From contig OY969811.1 in the NCBI GenBank assembly GCA_963703315.1, forward strand, positions 2,016,001-2,080,000: DNA of 64,000 bases. The letters run 5' to 3'. A model generated the notes under the pieces. It was given only the letters and a program-made list of their open reading frames with translations, was not told where the DNA came from and made no database searches. Origin of the DNA: an uncultured cyanobacterium. Lineage in GTDB: Bacteria; Cyanobacteriota; Cyanobacteriia; Pseudanabaenales; Pseudanabaenaceae. This document shows positions 35,780 to 51,151 of this stretch, in pieces (position 1 is the first letter of the stretch; every line of letters starts with the position of its first letter). Made by a program: the position numbers and the translations under genes.

Positions 35780-36926
35780 ATTTAAGTATTTAGCACGTTT
35801 TATATTTAACTTGCTGGGTTTCGATGTGTTGCCAGTATTTGATTTGGGCTTCTTGATGGCAATGCAAAATACCGAACCATTCTAGGCGTTCGAGGTTTTC
35901 TGAAATTGCATTTTTATAGCGGCTACCGTTTTTAAATTGGGCGGCGCTTTGGGCGATCAGTTGTTGCGATCGCGAGATCAATATGATTTACAGCTAAAAT
36001 GTTTACAATAAGAAATTGGGTAAAAAACTTTCGTATTTATGCAAAATAAAAATTTCTGGGAGGCATGTGTTGGTAAGACTATTGACGATAGGTATAGTTT
36101 GGAAAAGCTGATTGGTTCAGGTAGTTTTGGTGGAGTATTTCAGGCAAAGATGGTTGTGTTAGGGCATACGTTGCAAAAAAAAGTTGCCGTTAAACTAATG
36201 CAGGATGGTGATGTGGGAGGTATGCAGCACTGTGAACTTAAATCTGCGCTGAATTTGCCTTCTCATGACAGCCTTGTCCAGCATTTTAATTGGGGACAAG
36301 TGAAAATTAATGATTTCCCTATGCTTTATCTAGTTATGGAACTTGGAGAATATTGTCTAGATAGCTATAGAAAAGATAGACAAGTACTAAGTTCAGATGA
36401 AGTAAAGGAGATAGTTCTATCTGTAGCTGAAGGCTTATGTTATATGCATAGCAAGGTACATGGTGGTAGCGAACTCACTCCTCCTGAACAACTGACCCAT
36501 CGAGATCTTAAGCCAGCAAATGTTATCAAAGTTGGTAAAAAATGGAAAATGGCTGATTTTGGTTTTGGTAAGTCTCTTAATAAAGGCTCTGTGCAAGCGA
36601 CTCTGATTGGTGGTACAGATCGTTATATGCCGCCAGAAATTTTTGAAAGACAGTGGATATCGACGAAAGGAGATATATGGGCTTTAGGAGTAATGATAGT
36701 TGAAATGCTTGCAGGGCATCATCCTATTAAAGTTCCAATTACTAGCGCAACTATTCAAAAAGAACCTATTGATCTTGACGGCGTACCTGATGAATGGATA
36801 GAAATTGTAAATGGATGTTTGCAAAAAGACCATAAGGAAAGATGGACAGCACAACAAGTTTTAGATGCTGTAGAAACTTGGGACAAAAGCTTATCTGTTG
36901 AAGAACTTTATAATCAAGCATTTGAA

Positions 36927-37764
36927 GGTAATGTGTCAGACTTGTTGGAAGGTATAGTAACAAGGGTAAGAATAAGTAGGAAAAAAAGATGGTATTTGAA
37001 GTAGTCGAATGTCCAACCTGCGGAGGTGTAAACATCCACCGACATGGACAAAGTGCCACAGGTAAAAAACGATACATTTGCTTAAACATAGAATGTATGC
37101 GAAAGACGTTTATTCTTGATTACACCTATCAAGGGTATCGTCCAGAAGTAAAAGAGCAAGTGTCAGAAATGGCGGTCAATGGCAGTGGCATTAGAGATAC
37201 AAGTCGAGTATTAAAGATTAGTCCGAATACTGTCATCAAAGAGTTAAAAAAAAAGAGGAAGACATCGAATCTGTAAACTATTCTCTGCTAGAGCAACTTG
37301 ACATAGAAACGCTTGATGTTGACCTTTATCAAGTAGAAGAAGCAGAAATGGATGAGATGTGGAGTTTTGTTGGCAGCAAGAAACAGCAAAGATGGCTGTG
37401 GCACGCTATTGATCATGTGACTGGAAGGGTCTTAGCTTATGTTTTAGCTCCGCATAAAGATGAAGCCTTGGTTAAGCTCGTGAATTTGCTAAAACCGTTT
37501 GGAATCAAGCATTTTTTCACCGATGCATGGGGTGCATACGAAAGGATTCTTGATCCTCACACTCACCTAATCGGCAAGAAAAATACTCAGAAGATTGAAC
37601 GAAAGCATCTAACTTTGAGAACGAGGATTAAGCGTTTAGCTAGAAAGACGATTTGCTTTTCTAAATCGATTGTGATGCATGATATTGTCATTGGTCTGTT
37701 TATCAACAGATATGAGTTTTCGTTTCAATCCCATTGAACGCTCCAACAAATGTGACACATTACC
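36927..37764 (+). mobile_element. IS1-family insertion sequence (838 bp)
   Basis: Imperfect TIRs GGTAATGTGTCAGACTTGTTGGA / TCCAACAAATGTGACACATTACC; 8-bp TSD CATTTGAA. Confidence 0.95.
36989..37737 (+). CDS. insAB: IS1 transposase InsAB (insA 36989-37276; insB in the -1 frame, joined at the A9G run 37246-37255)
   Basis: InsA Zn-ribbon CPTC..C..C plus HTH; InsB 'MDEMWSFVGSK', 'TDAWGAY', 'TQKIER'; -1 frame open across the A-run. Confidence 0.9.
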
Positions 37765-38559
37765 CATTTGAACACTATAGATATGGAAGTTATGAAGCTG
37801 CAATCTCTAAATATAATGCAGCAATTCAACTTAAGCCTGATTACATTCTTGCTTATGCAGCAAGAGGAAGAGTTTTCAAATTTATGAACGATGATACTAA
37901 ATCCAAACAAGATCTAGAAAAAGCTATTACCTTATTCCCAATATTAACAGCCGAAGCTTATCACGCTAGAGCCATTGCTAAATCTGGATTGGAGGATAAG
38001 CAAGGTGCGATCGATGATCTTACTAAAGCTATTGAACTTAAACCCAATTATGTCGCTGCATACCGAGCGCGTGGAATAATACTAAAAGAGATGGGAGATA
38101 AAGATGGAGCCACATCAGATTTTTCCGAAGCAATTCGTATAGATCCTGACTATGCTGAGTCTTATTACAGCCTTGGCGTAGAAAAGTCTGACAAAGAGGA
38201 CAAAAAGGGAGCAATAGCCGATTATACTAAGGCAATTCTCCTTAAACCTAATTTTGCTGCGGCATTTATTAATCGTGGTTCTATAAGGTCTGCATTAGGG
38301 GAAATACAAAAAGCTATAGAAGATTATACGGAGGCAATCCGCATTCAACCTTGTTATGCCAATACATACACTTATCGTAGTAGTTGCTATGATAAGTTAG
38401 GAAAAAGACAAGAAGCTCTTGCTGATTTACGAGAAGCATCAAGACTTTATAAATTACAAGGGAAAGTAGATGAATACAATAATTCTCTAATCCGTATTAA
38501 AACGCTAGGAGGCTAATGGCATCATAATATTCTAGAAAGAATGTAAATTTACATTCTTT

Positions 38560-39333
38560 CTACGCAAGTTGACGCTGTGAAATAGCTAACCGTCTTTGTT
38601 TGACTAGCTCAGGAGTAGAACGATTTTTATCATCTTGCGAATCAAAACCAAGACGAACATAAACCTCACCACCAATTCCCGGAACAATAATTCCTTCAGG
38701 CGTTTTTACATCATCCTCAGCTAAGTACACATACCGAAACTTGTTATAAATATCCTCAGAAAATCCTTTTTTTAAACGATCCTCTGCCCCTTGATAAATA
38801 ACAGGTGCAACGATAAATATTTGTTTTGGTGATATCCTTGCGATCGTGTCAATCAAGTTAGTCCGCACAACACAAGCCCCTGAAATAATCGACTTAACGA
38901 TAATCAAGCTATCTACTTGAGCATCTGATGGTTCGAGATAACGCTTTAAGATAGGAGCAACTTGTAAATCAGCAATACCAAACGGCTTAAACCTTTTATT
39001 CCAAAAGCAAGAAAAAGTAACCTTGGCAAGAGTGCCATCCAATCGGCTAAGAATTCCTTTTGCAAGAAAATCAGCATCTTCAGCCGTACAAGCTAAATGT
39101 GCCGAACTTGAATTACTAACAATTTGCGATAAAACAGCGCCTGCCAGACTTTCTCCTAGTTGATACATACTTTGCCGATAGGAATCAATACTGCTATCCT
39201 TATCAGCAAGAGCATCGAGCAGCACTTTTTCCTTATCTCCAGCAAATTGTGTGTACTTTCTAGACACGGTTGCGATCGCTTGATTTTTTGTAAATATTAC
39301 CTTAAGTATAGACTCTCCCAAGAATTTGTACAA
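38560..39333 (-). CDS. Uracil-phosphoribosyltransferase-fold protein with degenerate PRPP loop
   Basis: 'SYRQSMYQLG', 'LIIVKSIISGACVV' at the PRPP-loop position, C-terminal 'IIVPGIGG..Y.RLG'; the true start may be the internal GTG (MSRKY..). Confidence 0.55.
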   Translation of the reverse strand: MYKFLGESILKVIFTKNQAIATVSRKYTQFAGDKEKVLLDALADKDSSIDSYRQSMYQLGESLAGAVLSQIVSNSSSAHLACTAEDADFLAKGILSRLDGTLAKVTFSCFWNKRFKPFGIADLQVAPILKRYLEPSDAQVDSLIIVKSIISGACVVRTNLIDTIARISPKQIFIVAPVIYQGAEDRLKKGFSEDIYNKFRYVYLAEDDVKTPEGIIVPGIGGEVYVRLGFDSQDDKNRSTPELVKQRRLAISQRQLA

Positions 39334-39334
39334 C

Positions 39335-40246
39335 CTAAAGCAAATTTTCTAAATCTTCAAATGTCGTAGGGCTTATTTGCAGAATAAGATTCTGTAATTT
39401 TTGAAACTCTTCACTCTCAAGACTGAAAGGATATGTACCATCCATTCCTAATACTGGATATTCCCAATAAAAAAAACCTCTAGAAATAGAATAGGTAAAT
39501 CCATTAATACTTTGTAGAATCGAGATAACTTTTGGCTCAAGAGCAAATGAATCATCTGATTTAAAAGAACGGATAAAGGATGGTTGACAGTTTTGCGCTT
39601 TCTCCAGAACATTACGCACAGTAGTTTGCGATGTATCACTGGATACCCATGCTCCTATTAAAACTGTTGCAACACATTCGATTTTGTCTTGCGTCGGATT
39701 CTCGAAAGCTGTTAAATAGGAAATAGCTTCTCTCAGTTGATTATTAACTGTCAATAATTCATTTATCGTTTTTCGATAAGGGAAGAAAATTACTGAGCTA
39801 TAAGCCTGAATATCCATAGGCATTTTCGCAATTAATTTGTTAGCCACATCTTCAGATGAAACAACGACTGACATTATAGATGAGCGATTGAGAGCATTTG
39901 TGTTAAGTTGAAATTGCATCCTAAAATCAAAAGCAACTTTGACATCGCTATTATCTGTTCCCCATGAAAGTGATTGTGATTCTTTAATTTGGAAGTGCTG
40001 TAAATCTAAGCCTACTCCGCGATCAATAATCAGATCGTCTACAAAAGCCACAATCTGACTAAAAATATCAATGTCCTCTAACTCTTGAATAATGATTTCT
40101 TTTGCCAGTAATGCTATTTGATAAATTGCAAAGAAATTTTCGTATGAGTTGCCCTTTTGATTAACCTGTCCTCCCCGATGTTTATTCCGTAAATAATTAA
40201 TATTTTCCTCATTGAGATTGGCTGCAAGCTGTCTGTCGGAATACAT
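39335..40246 (-). CDS. PD-(D/E)XK nuclease, DUF4297/Cap4-like N-terminal domain
   Basis: 'RGG....KGNSYENFFA', 'FVDDL', 'HFQIK' follow the G..Y(Q/E)..DD..QxK pattern. Confidence 0.6.
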   Translation of the reverse strand: MYSDRQLAANLNEENINYLRNKHRGGQVNQKGNSYENFFAIYQIALLAKEIIIQELEDIDIFSQIVAFVDDLIIDRGVGLDLQHFQIKESQSLSWGTDNSDVKVAFDFRMQFQLNTNALNRSSIMSVVVSSEDVANKLIAKMPMDIQAYSSVIFFPYRKTINELLTVNNQLREAISYLTAFENPTQDKIECVATVLIGAWVSSDTSQTTVRNVLEKAQNCQPSFIRSFKSDDSFALEPKVISILQSINGFTYSISRGFFYWEYPVLGMDGTYPFSLESEEFQKLQNLILQISPTTFEDLENLL

Positions 40247-40543
40247 TAAGGATTATCCTAATATTTAAGAATATCTTCTAAAATAGCTCAAAATCAGACA
40301 TCCTAAACACAAAGCCAAACACAATTCGCTAAAAAATCTAATAGTTCATTTCCATGTGAGCCTTGCCATTTAGCTAAAAACCCCTGAATATTTGTGCGAT
40401 CGCGATCTACCATGATATCTACTGAAACTTTCGGACAATTCTAACATTTTGTAGGCAATTTGAGGCGATCGCCTTTATCTAAAAACTAAATGAGCCTGAT
40501 AATATAGAAATCATATTTTTGTCGTCAACCAGCCACAACAGCC

Positions 40544-43636: not shown

Positions 43637-45367
43637 AAACTTGTTACAGATCTTAACTGAGATCCGCTTTATTTAATAATTTTAGCAAAAAATTACAAGT
43701 ATAAATGACAAAATTTACGATTGTAATCAGTCTAATTAATTGTAATTTTATAATACAATTAATTAGACATTTTTTAAAATCTTGGTTTCATAGTCATAAT
43801 TTCTGTAAACCTTTGTTTTTGAGCCTCATGATTTCCTCATTTTTTAGTGCAATACTTCCGACAGTTCCAAAACCTTGTGTCAACGACCCCATATGTATAT
43901 GGCTAGTATTTTGGTCTTTATTTAAATTACCGTTAGCTTTTGAGCCAACAGCCAACTAAATCAAAATACTGCACAAAAAGCCTTATAGACTCGTTAAAAA
44001 AATGTCCGAAGTATTGATAATAGAAATTCTGAATTAGCAATCGATCATAGAACAAAATGCTTTTGCAAATTTATTAAGATTGACATACAATTATTATTAG
44101 TTGATTTTAACAACTAATAATAAGTATTTTTAACTATTAAGTCCGTAAATACTTATTAGTTAAAAATACCTATTAGTTAAAAATAACAATCTATAGCACT
44201 CCTAAATCTATAAAAATGCCTAAATTATTTGTAGATTTTTAGATTTGCTATATTCGTCTTCAAGTTATAGTGAGGATCGCCATTATAAATATGTTTGTTA
44301 AACTACAAAATTGCTACTTTTTATTATTAATTTGATCTGTAATCAGAAATATTTATGACGCAATATTGAGAAATCATCTTTTCGATTGAGTGTATTCCTA
44401 GTCAATATTTATAACTGTGGGCTGTTTTATGCCACTCATCTCAGAATCTGCACAACCAAAGTCTCAAAAACAGGGTATATCCTTACAGCTTTTGTTAGTC
44501 GTGCCATTTGTTTTGCAGATTTTTGCAGCAGTAGGGATTACAGGATATATCTCACTACGCAATGGTCAACAATCTGTCAACGATCTTGCCAGTCAGTTAA
44601 ATAGCAAAACTGGTCGTCTGGTTGAGCAGCATTTAGATAGTTATTTGGGTGTTCCTCCCAAAATCAATCAAATTAACGTTGATGCGATCGCCGTTGGTTT
44701 ACTTGACTTAAAAGATTTTGCAAAGGCTGGGCGCTATTTTTGGAAGCAAATGCAAGCTTATAATGTTGCCTACATTAGTTATGGATTAGCAAACGGGGAC
44801 TATATCGGTGCAGGTTATCTCAAGGAAGGCTCGGAAATCGTTATTGATGAAATCTCTAGCAAAACTAAAGGTAAAGCTTTTACTTATAAGGTCGATGTCG
44901 ATGGCAATCGTCTGGAAAAATTTCGTAAATATGAGTATAAACCTTTGGAGGAGTCTTGGTATCCTAGAACTGTAGAGGCTAACAAACCAATTTGGACAGA
45001 AGTTTACGCTTGGGATAATGGCAAAGGGGATTTTGGTATTTCTCACAATCAACCTATTTATGGGAAGCAGAAAGAAATTGTCGGGATAATGAGTGTCGAT
45101 TTTTTATTGAGTGGAATTAGTGACTTTCTGACTCGAATTCAGCTTAGTCCTTCCGCGCAAATATTTGTGATTGAACGAAATGGGCTGTTAGTCGCTAATT
45201 CTAATAAGCAAAAAGTGATTGCGACTATTAATGGTAAAGAAGATCGCCTTAATATTCTTCAAAGCCAAGATCCACTGGTACGCGAAACTGCAAAGCATTT
45301 ACAGCAAAAGTTTGGTGATTTTAAGACGATCCAAACGGAATTTCAAAGCTCAGACTTTATATACCAA

Positions 45368-47083
45368 CCCACATTCCGCTCGTAATGGAAGGGTAAAATA
45401 ATTAACTAAAGGTAAGGCACAAGAGCAAAAAGAGGAGGCAGGTATTAATACAGAGATGAAAGTAACGAACCTAGACCATCTAGGGATCGTGGCAGGAATC
45501 ATCGACGAGATGGGAATCGTGGAAGAAATAAACACGATAATCGGGAGAAGCTCAAGAGAAAAAGTAAGTGCAGGAGTAATTGTCAAAGCCATGCTCCTGA
45601 ATGGATTAGGATTTGTATCAGCACCCCTGTATATGTTTGGTAAATTCTTTGAAGGGAAACCAACCGAGCACTTATTGGGGGAAGGGATAACAGCCGAACA
45701 AATCAATGATGACCGCATCGGTAAAGTACTGGATGACTTACATGAAGCAGGACTGAGTGAGACATTTTTAGGAATCAGCCTGAAAGCAGTAGCAAAATAC
45801 GATGTCAAGGTAGAAACAGGACATATAGACTCAACCTCATTTCACGTAGATGGGGAATATGGCAGAGAGGAAGAAGGGAGTATCGAAATCACACACGGAT
45901 ATTCACGCGACCATCGCCCCGACCTGAAGCAATTTATGATGAACCTGATCTGTGTAGGAGATGGAGACATTCCCGTGATGATGGAAGTGGTAAGTGGAAA
46001 TCAAGCCGACAAAGCAAGATTTGCAGGACTATTACAAGAATTCAAAACCCAGTGGACATTTGAGGGAATATGCGTAGGCGATGCAGCGCTATACAGTGAA
46101 GAAAATCTGGTAGCAATGACAGGACTAAAATGGCTAACCCGAGTGCCATTAAGCATCAAAACTGCAAGTGACTTAGTGTCAAGCACAACTGACCTACAAG
46201 AAAGTAAATTTAAGGGATACAGGACAGCCGAAACTGTGAGTGAGTATGGTGGTGTAAGACAGAGATGGATTTTAGTTGATAGCCAAGCAAGACGTAAATC
46301 AGACATCAAAAAGTTAGACAAAAAGCTTGAGCAAGTCCAGCAAAAATGTCATCAAGATTTACACACTTTGGCGGGACAAGATTTTGCCTGTGCTGCTGAC
46401 GCGATCGCTGCTGCTGAAAAATTATCAACCAAGATGAAATGGCATCAACTCGACCATATTCAGGCAGTAGAAAAACCACATTATGCGAAACGGGGTAAGC
46501 CACAACCTGATGCTATACCCACCAGCATTAGTTATCGGATTACTGCAACGGTGATTCCTATAGACTCAGAAATCTTGGCTCAGCAACAGCGTTGTGGCAG
46601 GTTTATTTTAGCCACGAATATTCTTGATTCCTTACAATTCACGGCTGATGATGCTTTACGGGAATACAAGGCTCAGCAGAGCACTGAGCGTGGTTTTCGT
46701 TTCCTCAAAGATCCTTTGTTTTTTACTTCGAGTGTTTTTCTCAAGTCTGCTAAACGCATTGAGGCTTTGGGCATGATTATGGCACTGTGCTTGCTCGTTT
46801 ATAATTTAGCCCAACGTCAACTCAGACTTGCCTTAGCCATCGCTCAAGATACTATTCCTAATCAATTGGGTAAACCCACTAATTCGCCAACTTTGCGTTG
46901 GATTTTTCAATGTTTTATGGCGGTTCATTTAGTTTCTTTTCAGAACCTGACTCAAGTTGCAAATTTGTCTCCGCTTCGCCTTCACATTTTGAATTTCTTT
47001 TCTCCCTCCTGCCAACGCTACTATTTGCTCCCTGCTCCTGTTTCGTAATTGTTTTTTTTCTTCCATTACGAGCGGAATGTGGG
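45368..47083 (+). mobile_element. IS1634-family insertion sequence (1716 bp)
   Basis: Perfect 24-bp TIR CCCACATTCCGCTCGTAATGGAAG; 6-bp TSD TACCAA. Confidence 0.93.
45456..47048 (+). CDS. IS1634-family DDE transposase
   Basis: 'LDHLGIVAG', 'HIDSTSF', '[12 protein letters not shown]', 'VGDAALY', '[10 protein letters not shown]'. Confidence 0.9.
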
Positions 47084-48894
47084 TACCAAGGCGAGCACCA
47101 ATTTTTGCAAGTCACACCTTGGCGTGATCGCTATGGATTAGATTGGCTGGTGGTGGTAGTCGTGCCTGAGTCAGACTTTATGGCGCAGATCAATGCCAAT
47201 ACGCGCACCACGATTTTGCTTTGTCTTGTGGCACTGGCGATCGCCATTTTGGTGGGACTGATCACATCGCGTTGGATCGCCAAACCGATTCAAGGTTTAA
47301 ATAAAGCTGCCGCCGCGATCGCTGAGGGCGAACTAGAAACTCGCGTAAATATTCAAGGCATTAATGAATTAGAAGTCCTATCAACTTCCTTTAATCAGAT
47401 GGCTTCCGAACTGCAAGAATCCTTTGAAAATCTGGAAGATAAAGTTGCCGATCGCACGATAGAACTCCAAAAAGCCAAGGAACAAGCTGAAGTTGCCAAT
47501 GTTGCCAAAAGTGAATTTCTCGCTAACATGAGCCATGAACTGCGAACACCATTAAATGCGATCTTAGGCTTTACCCAAATCATGAACCGCGATCGCAGCC
47601 TCAATAAATCACAACTTGAGAATCTCGGTATCATCGGTCGTAGCGGCGAGCATTTATTGGCTCTGATTAATGATGTCCTTGATATGTCCAAAATTGAATC
47701 AGGAAGAATCGCCCTCCATGAGACTGATTTTGACCTACGCGAAACTCTTTATTTGGTCGTAGAAATGTTTCAAATGCGTGCTGATACTAAGGACTTATAT
47801 CTTAAACTCGAACAATCAGCCGACCTCCCTCAATTTGTCCGCACTGATGAAAAGAAACTACGCCAAGTCTTGATTAATCTGATTAGTAATGCCCTTAAAT
47901 TCACGAAAACAGGCGGAATTACCATCGAGGTGAAGCTTGAGAATTTAAGAGATAATAATTCATTAGCAAATATCCATTTTTCAGTTAGCGATACTGGTGA
48001 TGGCATTGCTGCCGATGAAGCCGATAAGGTCTTTGATCCATTTATGCAAACAGAATCAGGACGCAAATCTGAGCAAGGTACAGGTTTAGGCTTACCAATC
48101 AGCCGTAAGTTCGTGCAACTCATGGGCGGCGATATCACCTTCAAGAGTGAAGTTGGCATTGGTACAGTTTTTGAGTTTAGTATCCAAGCAAAAATAAGTG
48201 AATCGGCTAAGGCGATCGCTGCTAAACCCATCAGTCGAGTCATTGGTCTCGCACCCAATCAAAAAAACTATCGAATTTTAGCCGTTGACGATCGCTGGGA
48301 AAATCGTCAAATTCTTTTAAAACTATTGACTCCAATTGGCTTTGAAGTAAAAGAAGCTGAAAATGGACAGATCGCGATTAATATTTGGGAACAATGGCAA
48401 CCAGATTTAATTTGGATGGATATGCGAATGCCTGTAATGAATGGCTATGAAGCTACTACCCAGATCCGATCCCACCTCAAAGGTCAAGCAACTACAATTA
48501 TCGCGCTCACAGCCAGTACCTTAGAAGAAGAAAGAGCAATCGTCCTATCGGCAGGTTGTGATGATTTTGTACGCAAACCCTTTCTCGAAGATACTATCTT
48601 TGAGAAGATGTCACAATATCTTGGTGTGCAGTACGTTTATGAAGCGATCGCCCCCAGTCAGCCAAAATCTAGTGAAGCTCCAGTCAAATTCACGGCTGAG
48701 TCGCTGTTGGTAATGCCCAAAGCATGGCTAATCGAACTTGAGCAGGCTGCTTCACAACTAGATGGCAATGCGATCGCGCAGTTATTAACCCAAGTACCAC
48801 AGGAGCATTTCCTGATTACTAAAGAGATTGAAGATCATGTTAATGATTTTGACTTTGATCGAATTATCACTTTGGTGCAAGAGGCAATTTCCCC

Positions 48895-51151
48895 ATGAAT
48901 GAATCTATCAACTCACCTCAAAATTCATCTTCAGCGATTATAACTGGATTCACAAAAACAGAAAGAGTGATTTTGATTGTTGATGACTTACCTGACAATC
49001 TCCGTGTTTTGTCCGCCGCCTTGTCAGGACAAGGATTCCAAATTCGTTGCGCTAAAAGTGGGGCGATCGCACTGATGGCAGTCCAGACAACTTGTCCAGA
49101 TTTGATCTTGCTAGATATCAAAATGCCTGACATGGACGGTTACGAAGTTTGTCAGCGACTCAAAGCATCTGAATCTACTTGCGATACTCCGATCATCTTT
49201 TTAAGTGCCTTAGATGATGTTTTTGATAAGGTCAAAGCTTTTAACCTTGGTGGTGCTGACTATATTACCAAGCCCTTTCAAGTTGAAGAAGTCTTAATCC
49301 GTGTTAAACATCAACTATCAACTTAAAGCCGCCCAAGCCGAAATTTTTCAACTTAATCAGCAACTCGAAGAACGTATTCAGCGTCGTACTCAACAGTTGG
49401 AAATCACCAATCAAGCGTTACAGCAAGAAATTACTGAACGTCAACTTATCCAAGAATCTTTGAAAGTGAGTGAAGAGCGATTAGACAGTATTCTAGGTGC
49501 GATCGAAGATGTTGTTTGGTCTATGGATGAAACTATGTCCAAGACTCTCTATCTTAACTCTGCTGTAGAAAGAATCTATGGTTATCCAATGTCTGATTTC
49601 TTGGAAGATCATCACCTCTGGCTAAAGGTTATTCATCCTGAGGATCGTCTTCGTGTTAAAAATATTACGCACACGATCCTGCTCACAGGTAGTTTTAACG
49701 AAGAATATCGGATTTTACGCCCCGATCAGGAAATTCGCTGGATCAACAATCAGGGACATTGTATTTACGATCGCGATGGCAAGCTGCTCCGTATTGATGG
49801 CATTGTCCGCGATATCACCGCGCAGAAAAAGGCACAGCAGCAACTAGTCCATGATGCGTTCCATGACGCACTGACAAATTTACCTAATCGCAACCTGTTT
49901 ATGGAAAGGATTGAGCAAGCCCTCAATCACAACAAACGACATCCCCAATATCTGTTTGCGGTCATGTTTATCGATCTAGATCGATTCAAGATGATTAACG
50001 ATAGCCTCGGTCATGCAGTTGGTGATCAGTTTTTGCAAGCGATCGCCAAACTATTGGCAAGCTGTCTCCGAGGAGGCGATACTGTGGCGCGTCTTGGTGG
50101 TGACGAATTCACAATTCTAGTTAACGATATGCGTGAACCTAGCGAGGCAGTGATGATTGCTGAGCGCATTCTCAATAAATTTCTACATCCAATTGAGATA
50201 GATAATCAATCCATCTTTGGCAGTGTGAGTATCGGTATCGTGATCAGCAACCCAGAATATGAGACTGCTGATAATTTACTTAGAGATGCTGATATTGCGA
50301 TGTATCGCGCCAAAGCTCTTGGTAAAGGCAGGTACACGATGTTTGACAAGGAAATGTATGAGCAAAATCTTAAGACGATTCAACTTGATAACGATTTGCG
50401 CTACGCCCTAGAACGCCAAGAATTTGAGCTATATTATCAACCGATCATCCATCTACCCTCTGAGAAATTAGCTGGTTTTGAAGCGCTAATCCGTTGGCAT
50501 CATCCTGAACGCGGCTTAGTGCCACCGAATGAGTTCATCTCCCTTGCCGAAGAAACGGGCTTAATTATTGCGATCGGTGATTGGGTTCTCCATCAAGCTT
50601 GTCAACAAATGCGTACTTGGCGAAGCAAATTTCCTGAAGCCCAATCGCTTAAGATGAGTGTTAATCTTACTTGTCAGCAAATACGCGAAAAAGATCTAAT
50701 CGAGAAACTAGATCGGGTCTTAGCGGTATCAGGAATCGATGGTAGTATCCTCCGTCTAGAAATCACCGAAAGCTCAATGATGGATCAAGGTGAAGAAACG
50801 ATCTCCAAACTAGAAGAATTACGCGCCCGCAATATCCAACTGAGCATTGATGACTTTGGACAGGGTTATTCTTCTCTCAGCTATCTCCATCGCTTTCCCG
50901 TAAATACTCTCAAAATTGATCGCAGTTTTGTGGAACTAATGAGCCTCGGCGGACAAAATCTTGCGATTATCCGCACGATTATCATTCTTGCCCATGCTCT
51001 AGATATGAATGTAGTAGCAGAAGGTGTAGAGACCCGTGAACAGATGTCCATGTTAAAGCAATTGGGCTGTGAGTATGGTCAAGGCTATTTTTTCTCTCGT
51101 CCGATCATCGCTGCGGCTGCCGAACAAATAATTAACAACCAAAAGATATAG
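48895..51151 (+). pseudogene. REC-PAS-GGDEF-EAL response regulator split by a +1 frameshift near 49318
   Basis: REC ORF ends ..KHQLST*; the overlapping frame continues QLKAAQAEI.., then PAS, GGDEF (RLGGDEF) and EAL (FEALIRW, DDFGQGYSS). Removing 1 nt gives 751 aa. Confidence 0.8.

Follow-up and report, generated by a model that had tools for sequence, protein, structure and literature searches.

One nuclease fold is shared by the effectors of several anti-phage systems, namely Cap4 of CBASS, LmuA of Lamassu, Avs3, HerA-DUF4297 and the Hachiman entry 8zue. The known switches of such DNases are cyclic-nucleotide domains or SMC, STAND and helicase partners. The PRTase superfamily is also used in defence, by retron III-A, ShosTA/PsyrTA, Ophion (OpnC) and the PRTase of DefensePredictor. 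The available parts of the corresponding reports present the PRTases of Ophion, retron III, ShosTA and PsyrTA as effectors or toxins (10.1101/2025.09.30.679545), that of the retron III-A Eco11 as a toxic/essential effector with an acidic PRPP motif (PMC12746101) and that of DefensePredictor as a single 343-aa retron-III-like protein, different from the UPRTase-fold protein discussed here (PMC13092281). In the gene pair described below, a Cap4-like nuclease is accompanied by a UPRTase-fold partner, and a known effector class is thus apparently found under a new kind of control subunit. The pair is real, conserved and mobile, and apparently undescribed, no description having been found in a full-text literature search that covered few subscription papers.

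The pair lies on the minus strand of the window, i.e. the whole 64-kb stretch of cyanobacterial DNA that was analysed, and is organized as follows.
39335..40246, minus strand: gene 1, nuclease, an ORF of 303 aa whose first Met aligns with the family start
39268..39334, minus strand: spacer of 67 nt between the nuclease and partner genes
38560..39267, minus strand: gene 2, UPRTase-fold partner, 235 aa, start GTG at 39267
40247..40450, minus strand: upstream region that moves with the pair, up to the outer cassette edge, as seen in contigs of related strains

These two minus-strand ORFs are at the place given in a preliminary description of this DNA and contain all the motifs quoted there. The 1-nt gap that it reported between them is wrong and amounts to 67 nt, since the family alignment sets the start of gene 2 at GTG 39267, the ORF-track start at TTG 39333 being too early. 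The spacer contains a HIP1 site (39272-39279) and a sigma70-like match (39332-39305, 9/12), which is no evidence of function since the promoter scan found fewer sites than in shuffled sequences. Contigs of related strains, one of them 28 kb long, match positions 38560-40450/40451 and are unlike the window outside both edges and, because the similarity stops there, 38560-40450 can be delimited as a mobile unit, a cassette of 1.9 kb. The closest named relatives of the window pair are from Pseudanabaena. The pair is AT-rich as previously claimed (GC content of 0.367 vs 0.422 for the genome, with 6% of stretches of equal length as low), while its alleged paucity of HIP1 sites is weak for the pair itself (one site vs 3.0 expected, 23% of equal stretches having at most one) and becomes clearer over 35974-40395 (one site vs 7.9 expected). 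RNA-library contigs span the pair, although such contigs cannot show transcription.

Judging from its modelled fold and its motif, the product of gene 1 is a Cap4-like nuclease, which would act as a DNase. Two features define it.
Residues ~20-224: Cap4/LmuA/Avs3-like PD-(D/E)XK DNase domain, by fold match, followed by a small C-terminal domain predicted to contact the partner
39983..40141, minus strand: catalytic motif E36...D70...Q86-x-K88, from the alignment of relatives

In a fold search that barely covered the C-terminal domain (~225-303), the AF2 model of the nuclease (pLDDT of 96.5) gave VIA Z-scores of 11.8 to Cap4 (6vm6, rmsd 3.7 over 167 residues), 11.2 to Avs3 (8dgc), 10.8 to the Hachiman entry 8zue and 10.1 to LmuA, within an overall range of 8.7-11.8 for Cap4-type effectors, while restriction enzymes reached at most 7.5. 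Foldseek returned LmuA and Cap4, in agreement with this ranking, and the earlier assignment to DUF4297/Cap4-type nucleases, with an intact motif, is therefore upheld. A profile search retrieved 650 representatives at E <=0.001, and in the 148 aligned sequences E36, D70 and Q86 are found without exception and K88 in 143; the four residues are all present in 102 of 104 intact paired nucleases. The dN/dS of the gene is 0.10-0.24 against three relatives. Sequence models fail to recognize the window nuclease, for which there was no match in Pfam, PADLOC or NCBIfam, and the Pfam Cap4_nuclease model (PF14130) weakly matches 10 of the 148 relatives (best E 1.4e-5) and not the window protein. A few relatives match LmuA models, and when the nuclease profile was run against PDB sequences, a designed helical protein was the sole match (E 0.41).

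Gene 2 encodes a protein whose fold is that of a UPRTase and whose active site is no longer that of a UPRTase, as can be seen in four segments.
39070..39087, minus strand: T-x-E-D-A-D loop (residues 61-66), which replaces the UPRTase I-L-R-A-G pyrophosphate loop
38932..38997, minus strand: flexible-loop hairpin (residues 91-112), the predicted main nuclease interface, with invariant P105
38869..38895, minus strand: PRPP loop K-S-I-I-S-G-A-C-V (residues 125-133), without acidic residue, with invariant K125 and C132
38668..38688, minus strand: I-V-P-G-I-G-G uracil-hood motif (residues 194-200), in which the catalytic Asp has become invariant G200

The AF2 model of the partner (pLDDT of 94.6) has a VIA Z-score of 23.6 to UPRTase 1vst, with an rmsd of 2.1 Å over 192 residues; UPRTases as a group score 20-23.6, whereas other PRTases score at most 12.6. 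The whole fold is common to both, the N-terminal helices and the C-terminal hood motif align, and a profile match to UPRTase was also obtained (E 7e-4), so that the UPRTase fold proposed from sequence landmarks is confirmed by structure search. Searches started from the window protein and from a Pseudomonas-type relative yielded 754 and 314 relatives, respectively, and an alignment of 149 of them was compared with nine true UPRTases at the active site. Unlike in UPRTase, the partner T-A-E-D-A aligns with I-L-R-A-G, which turns the Arg into an invariant E63, UPRTase P-G-L-G-D reads P-G-I-G-G, and ~20 residues of the N-terminal beta-arm are missing. The flexible-loop Arg appears to be replaced by N90, as judged by strand register rather than by the aligner. 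The PRPP loop has indeed lost its acidic residue, as noticed previously, with K125 fixed instead; its register differs by one residue between two alignments, in one of which S-G-A/S-C is aligned with T-G-G-S and may keep the phosphate cup.

According to the available part of PMC3570474, the replaced Arg and Asp residues are tied to PRPP binding and catalysis in UPRTase, and these swaps suggest that the partner would no longer carry out UPRTase chemistry. However, the label 'degenerate' given to this protein fits only in part, because the pocket is not drifting: E63, D64, D66, W89, N90, K125, C132, D185, G200 and Y203 are found in 149/149 aligned partners, and the active site has been re-fixed with other invariant residues instead of decaying. 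The dN/dS of the partner is 0.07-0.13 against two relatives. A housekeeping UPRTase was considered and rejected in view of the patchy occurrence of the gene, the upp of the host and the replaced active-site residues. Unlike upp, the partner gene is found in only 11 of 401 cyanobacterial genomes and comes in addition to a canonical upp, which is present elsewhere in the host genome. The window partner protein had no match in Pfam, PADLOC or NCBIfam; at the level of the family, 56/149 members weakly match one retron III-A PRTase model (best E 5.8e-6) and 16/149 match upp, neither of which is a family-level match. No match to the partner was found in annotated phage genomes, and a viral structure library returned generic PRTases only. 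In several close relatives the partner carries a C-terminal DUF2188 domain (L003:7001-7930; P0047-P0052), and in one locus (L028:7001-12763) it lies in a single 1920-aa frame with a DruE-like helicase.

The two proteins very probably form a direct complex, according to structure prediction. A 1:1 model of the nuclease and partner scored 0.88 in three runs, compared with 0.00 for the best of three controls, the runs sharing at least 96% of contacts with a partner pLDDT of at least 90; the multimer modelling proposed for this pair has thus given a positive answer. The mark used for complexes is reached by 116 of 157 solved pairs and 2 of 215 mismatched ones, counts that are only roughly valid with the alignments used. 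Since no similar complex was found in searches of the PDB, it is unlikely that the score reflects a memorized structure. On the nuclease, the interface is as follows.
39428..39694, minus strand: surfaces touching the partner in the complex model (helix 185-202, residues 220-224 and strand 265-273)

The partner hairpin 91-112 pairs in this model with strand 265-273 and helix 185-202, and the nuclease active site is absent from the predicted contacts, which makes control through allostery or oligomeric state likelier than plugging of the active site. In neither protein does conservation at the interface exceed that elsewhere. Because it includes only 2 of the 39 near-invariant partner residues, the others would be conserved for something else, and in the model nuclease binding leaves the conserved pocket unexplained.

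Homologues of the two genes pair across phyla, in cyanobacteria, Proteobacteria, Bacteroidota and myxobacteria, as the earlier proposal of a linked module would have it. Named hosts include cyanobacteria, Pseudomonas, Marinobacter, Neptuniibacter, Enterobacterales, Bacteroidota and Nannocystis, and both genes were also found on two plasmids. Among 174 partner-anchored loci (some redundant), 173 have a partner ORF, with a nuclease ORF directly upstream in 133, too little DNA to tell in 12 and none in 28. When the partner is complete and at least 1150 nt are available upstream (136 loci), the nuclease is intact in 104 loci, whereas 18 have a broken one and 14 none, and the two genes overlap by 4 nt in 53 of the 104 intact pairs. 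To guard against anchoring bias, genome surveys were run with the profile of each gene on the same genome samples. There were 7 full-length nucleases and 11 partners in 401 cyanobacterial genomes, and 12 and 17 full-length proteins, respectively, in 389 genomes of one cyanobacterial family. Once repeats were removed, a full-length partner was found directly downstream of 17/17 full-length nucleases in these cyanobacterial surveys, whereas 7/24 full-length partners had no intact nuclease, an asymmetry with a Fisher P of 0.029 and a sign test P of 0.016 among kin that are not independent. In 401 genomes of a gammaproteobacterial order, surveyed with the nuclease profile only, 3/3 nucleases were paired, bringing the surveyed full-length nucleases to 20/20 paired, in a small and non-independent sample.

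The loss of genes is therefore one-way: all seven single-gene loci of the surveys have kept the partner and none has only an intact nuclease. In matched loci (L084/L082, L035/L058, L103/L111 and L141/L136), one member of each pair has had its nuclease excised and retains the partner. Three broken partners were found, each where there was no intact nuclease, as well as one frameshifted nuclease without partner. This order, in which the nuclease goes first and the partner is left, is what one would predict for a nuclease that does harm in the absence of its partner, and its polarity suggests a resemblance to a toxin and its antitoxin. Orphan partners mostly keep the invariant residues (12/14), which could mean that the loss is recent or that they have a function of their own. 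Changes at invariant sites, found in 2/14 orphans, 0/18 partners next to a broken nuclease and 2/104 paired ones, do not establish relaxed selection on orphans. No replacement effector was seen upstream of orphan partners, where the genes listed are unrelated each time. Distances between nucleases are correlated with those between partners (Mantel r of 0.94), which shows that the genes travel together and not that they have co-adapted. In a 97%-identical relative (L001:4505-6460), nested insertion sequences interrupt the nuclease gene and the partner is intact. One genome (G166, L180) runs counter to this loss order: its partner, in which the pocket is altered (K125E, G130D), is fused to an HExxH-motif domain, and the nuclease keeps all four catalytic residues with a drifted C-terminus; both genes look drifted.

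The genomic context of relatives was examined for 38 paired loci, picked for long flanks from 80 partner relatives, by scanning the two nearest genes on each side with PADLOC and comparing them with 38 random stretches from ten cyanobacterial genomes (150/151 proteins scanned). Defence neighbours were counted by hand as strong matches to system genes (E ~1e-40 or better), generic matches to kinase, FtsH, TPR, transposase-like and ABC proteins being disregarded. They were found in 17/38 paired loci vs 4/38 random stretches (P 0.0017), and still in 11/32 vs 4/38 (P 0.02) with an operon type present in six copies, and a related pair of BREX loci, each counted once; 21/38 of the tested relatives have no known defence gene within two genes. 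The pair is often inserted into operons, where it separates the methylase from the large helicase in a DISARM/Druantia-like cluster or lies within BREX or in Hma, and it is also found after type I and III RM genes, beside Dsr2 and beside cas1/cas4. Another 25 loci, most of them metagenomic, were scanned with Pfam alone; there, integrases, insertion sequences and genes for conjugation were commoner and defence genes fewer. The expected proximity to defence genes was hence observed for relatives and not for the window copy, for which a PADLOC scan of the 64-kb window found no known defence neighbour. A recurrent cyanobacterial operon (L006, L018, L027, L028, L038, L040 and L249) consists of genes for an SNF2 helicase, an N6 methylase and a large DEAD/DruE-like helicase, the methylase and the latter helicase being separated by a cargo slot; its PADLOC matches are mixed (DpdE/DrmD, DrmMI/IIG, DruE) and no single system fits cleanly.

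None of the described systems that were compared accounts for this pair. The constant companions of Cap4-type effectors in CBASS, Lamassu, Avs and Hachiman are absent here: SAVED/CARF, cyclase, SMC, STAND ATPase and helicase proteins are never constant neighbours, and specifically no cyclase, SMC ATPase, STAND ATPase or HamB helicase occupies such a position in 63 scanned loci and the window, the UPRTase-fold protein being the only constant partner of the nuclease in the scanned loci. The partner differs from the defence PRTases in that its gene can persist by itself, and no genes for RT, DprA or radical-SAM proteins were seen among the scanned neighbours. The motifs of retron III-A (acidic PRPP, Gx14PNNxP) and its C-terminal winged helix, as given in the available part of PMC12746101, are absent from the partner alignment. 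Unlike in ShosTA/PsyrTA and DprA-PRTase, the protein found with it is a Cap4-like nuclease, and there was no PADLOC match to these systems among 149 members. PyrR and PurR show that PRTase folds have been turned from enzymes into transcription regulators. Such folds are among the structural matches of the partner, at far lower scores (Z ~10), whereas the target of the partner is predicted to be a nuclease that it contacts directly. PADLOC system models (2023 version) fit neither protein nor the pair, in line with the earlier failure to match it to a named system; an extensive table of predictions or a newer release may nonetheless already contain the family without naming it. A search with five family motifs returned a single, unrelated match in the available part of the PMC13092281 supplement, and the terms searched for do not occur in 10.1101/2025.01.08.631966.

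Our main reading, to which we assign a probability of about 0.5, is a mobile toxin-antitoxin-like anti-phage module acting by abortive infection, where the nuclease is held back by the UPRTase-fold subunit until infection lifts this restraint. A two-gene operon with a binding partner, as in type II toxin-antitoxin systems, is what was found, the coupling being observed and the complex predicted. Gene 1 would make a Cap4-family DNase, to which the product of gene 2 is predicted to bind via its flexible-loop hairpin, away from the active site. In uninfected cells, binding of the partner would keep the nuclease off, which we infer because the loss is one-way. Upon infection, the restraint would be lifted, most likely via the re-fixed pocket, whose flexible loop is the predicted interface and might move when a small phosphorylated ligand is bound or lost or when a phage protein makes contact. 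The freed nuclease would then assemble and degrade phage and host DNA, aborting the infection by analogy with Cap4 and LmuA. A defence role for the pair is probable, inhibition of the nuclease by the partner is the side on which we come down with some reserve, and the odds that the pocket reads the trigger are even; nucleotide sensing by the partner is an inference. Of the options put forward at the outset, that of an antitoxin gains comparative support from the surveyed loci, where the nuclease is lost alone and the partner never is. A bolder proposal, which we put forward only tentatively, is that a housekeeping UPRTase has been rebuilt as an immune receptor, whose charge-reversed pocket would monitor a nucleotide metabolite of the host or altered by the phage and gate the Cap4 DNase via the flexible loop.

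The same predicted geometry might serve the opposite purpose, with a nuclease inert alone and a partner that binds an infection-induced nucleotide and oligomerizes the nuclease into activity, like SAVED in Cap4. The invariant pocket outside the interface is compatible with such a sensor, as are an interface formed by the flexible loop with a free active site in the model and the activated nature of Cap4-type nucleases in CBASS and Lamassu (10.1101/2022.05.11.491447, in the part available). However, either gene could then go first, yet the seven single-gene loci all kept the partner, and we consider this activator rather unlikely. Against the preferred reading, one-way loss would also be expected if an activated nuclease were simply the costly part. 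The conserved pocket would also suit an active enzyme whose chemistry is new and which produces or removes a nucleotide signal, or is a second effector; E63/D64/D66, K125 and C132, present in 149/149 relatives, would be its catalytic residues. Described defence PRTases do act as enzymes or toxins (PMC12746101 and 10.1101/2025.09.30.679545, in the parts available), 56/149 members show a weak likeness to the retron III-A PRTase model and orphans persist intact. Nevertheless, the Arg and Asp residues for PRPP binding and catalysis are replaced and the very persistence of orphans argues against a toxic partner, which leaves this enzyme improbable.

Toxin-antitoxin behaviour could also be purely selfish, i.e. 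an addiction cassette that stabilizes mobile DNA without a real anti-phage role. Copies on two plasmids and in prophage-like contigs, others with integrases or conjugation genes as neighbours, and the 21/38 loci without defence neighbours point that way, whereas enrichment beside or inside RM, BREX and DISARM/Druantia-like operons does not, and the closest nuclease folds are all defence effectors; we give this little credence. Even less probable is a modification-dependent restriction system in which the uracil hood would recognize phage DNA by its uracil or modified pyrimidines and aim the nuclease at it: the IVPG-x-G hood motif is kept and the pair is often inside restriction-type operons, but no DNA-reading feature was seen, the PPi loop has turned acidic and a nuclease without a host target need not be lost first. 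For the preferred module, in which the partner restrains the nuclease, orphan partner genes in viral contigs deserve a mention (L082:6001-6708 and L174:7043-7672), one of which adjoins terminase and capsid-like genes: they could have a counter-defence role if the partner is an antitoxin.

If the preferred reading is true, the family reverses the role of defence PRTases, which in the reports cited here are the toxic or catalytic part, the PRTase fold being the control subunit of a nuclease. The bolder immune-receptor proposal would, if true, amount to a one-step metabolite-sensing immunity without cyclase, ATPase or second messenger. The family is compact (1.9 kb), spread over several phyla and predicted with high confidence to form a complex, and offers a short list of invariant residues. 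Few defence systems have been tested in cyanobacteria, to which the pair would add one. Complete genomes of E. coli gave no match to one proteobacterial-type DNA query at the sensitivity of blastn, and this absence, judged by a single query, may explain why E. coli-centred screens would miss the family.

As for the immediate surroundings of the window copy, which are not a defence island, they comprise an IS-split kinase-TPR gene, a MITE-like element and two Uma2 genes, and the IS, MITE and Uma2 neighbours announced previously have thus all been found.
36927-37764: IS1 element with 23-nt inverted repeats and an 8-nt target duplication, 3 copies in the genome
35562-35779: MITE-like element bounded by imperfect inverted ends of 41 nt and present in 15 near-full genome copies

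The kinase-TPR gene (36039-38516) is split by IS1 and is intact, with 548 aa, in a relative (L002). A perfect 30-nt palindrome (38533-38562), unique in the genome, lies between convergent genes and overlaps the stop codon of gene 2, and it is inside this palindrome, at 38560, that similarity to related strains ends. Further away, a sensor histidine kinase gene (44417-48898) is apparently split by a 530-aa transposase-like ORF (45456-47048).
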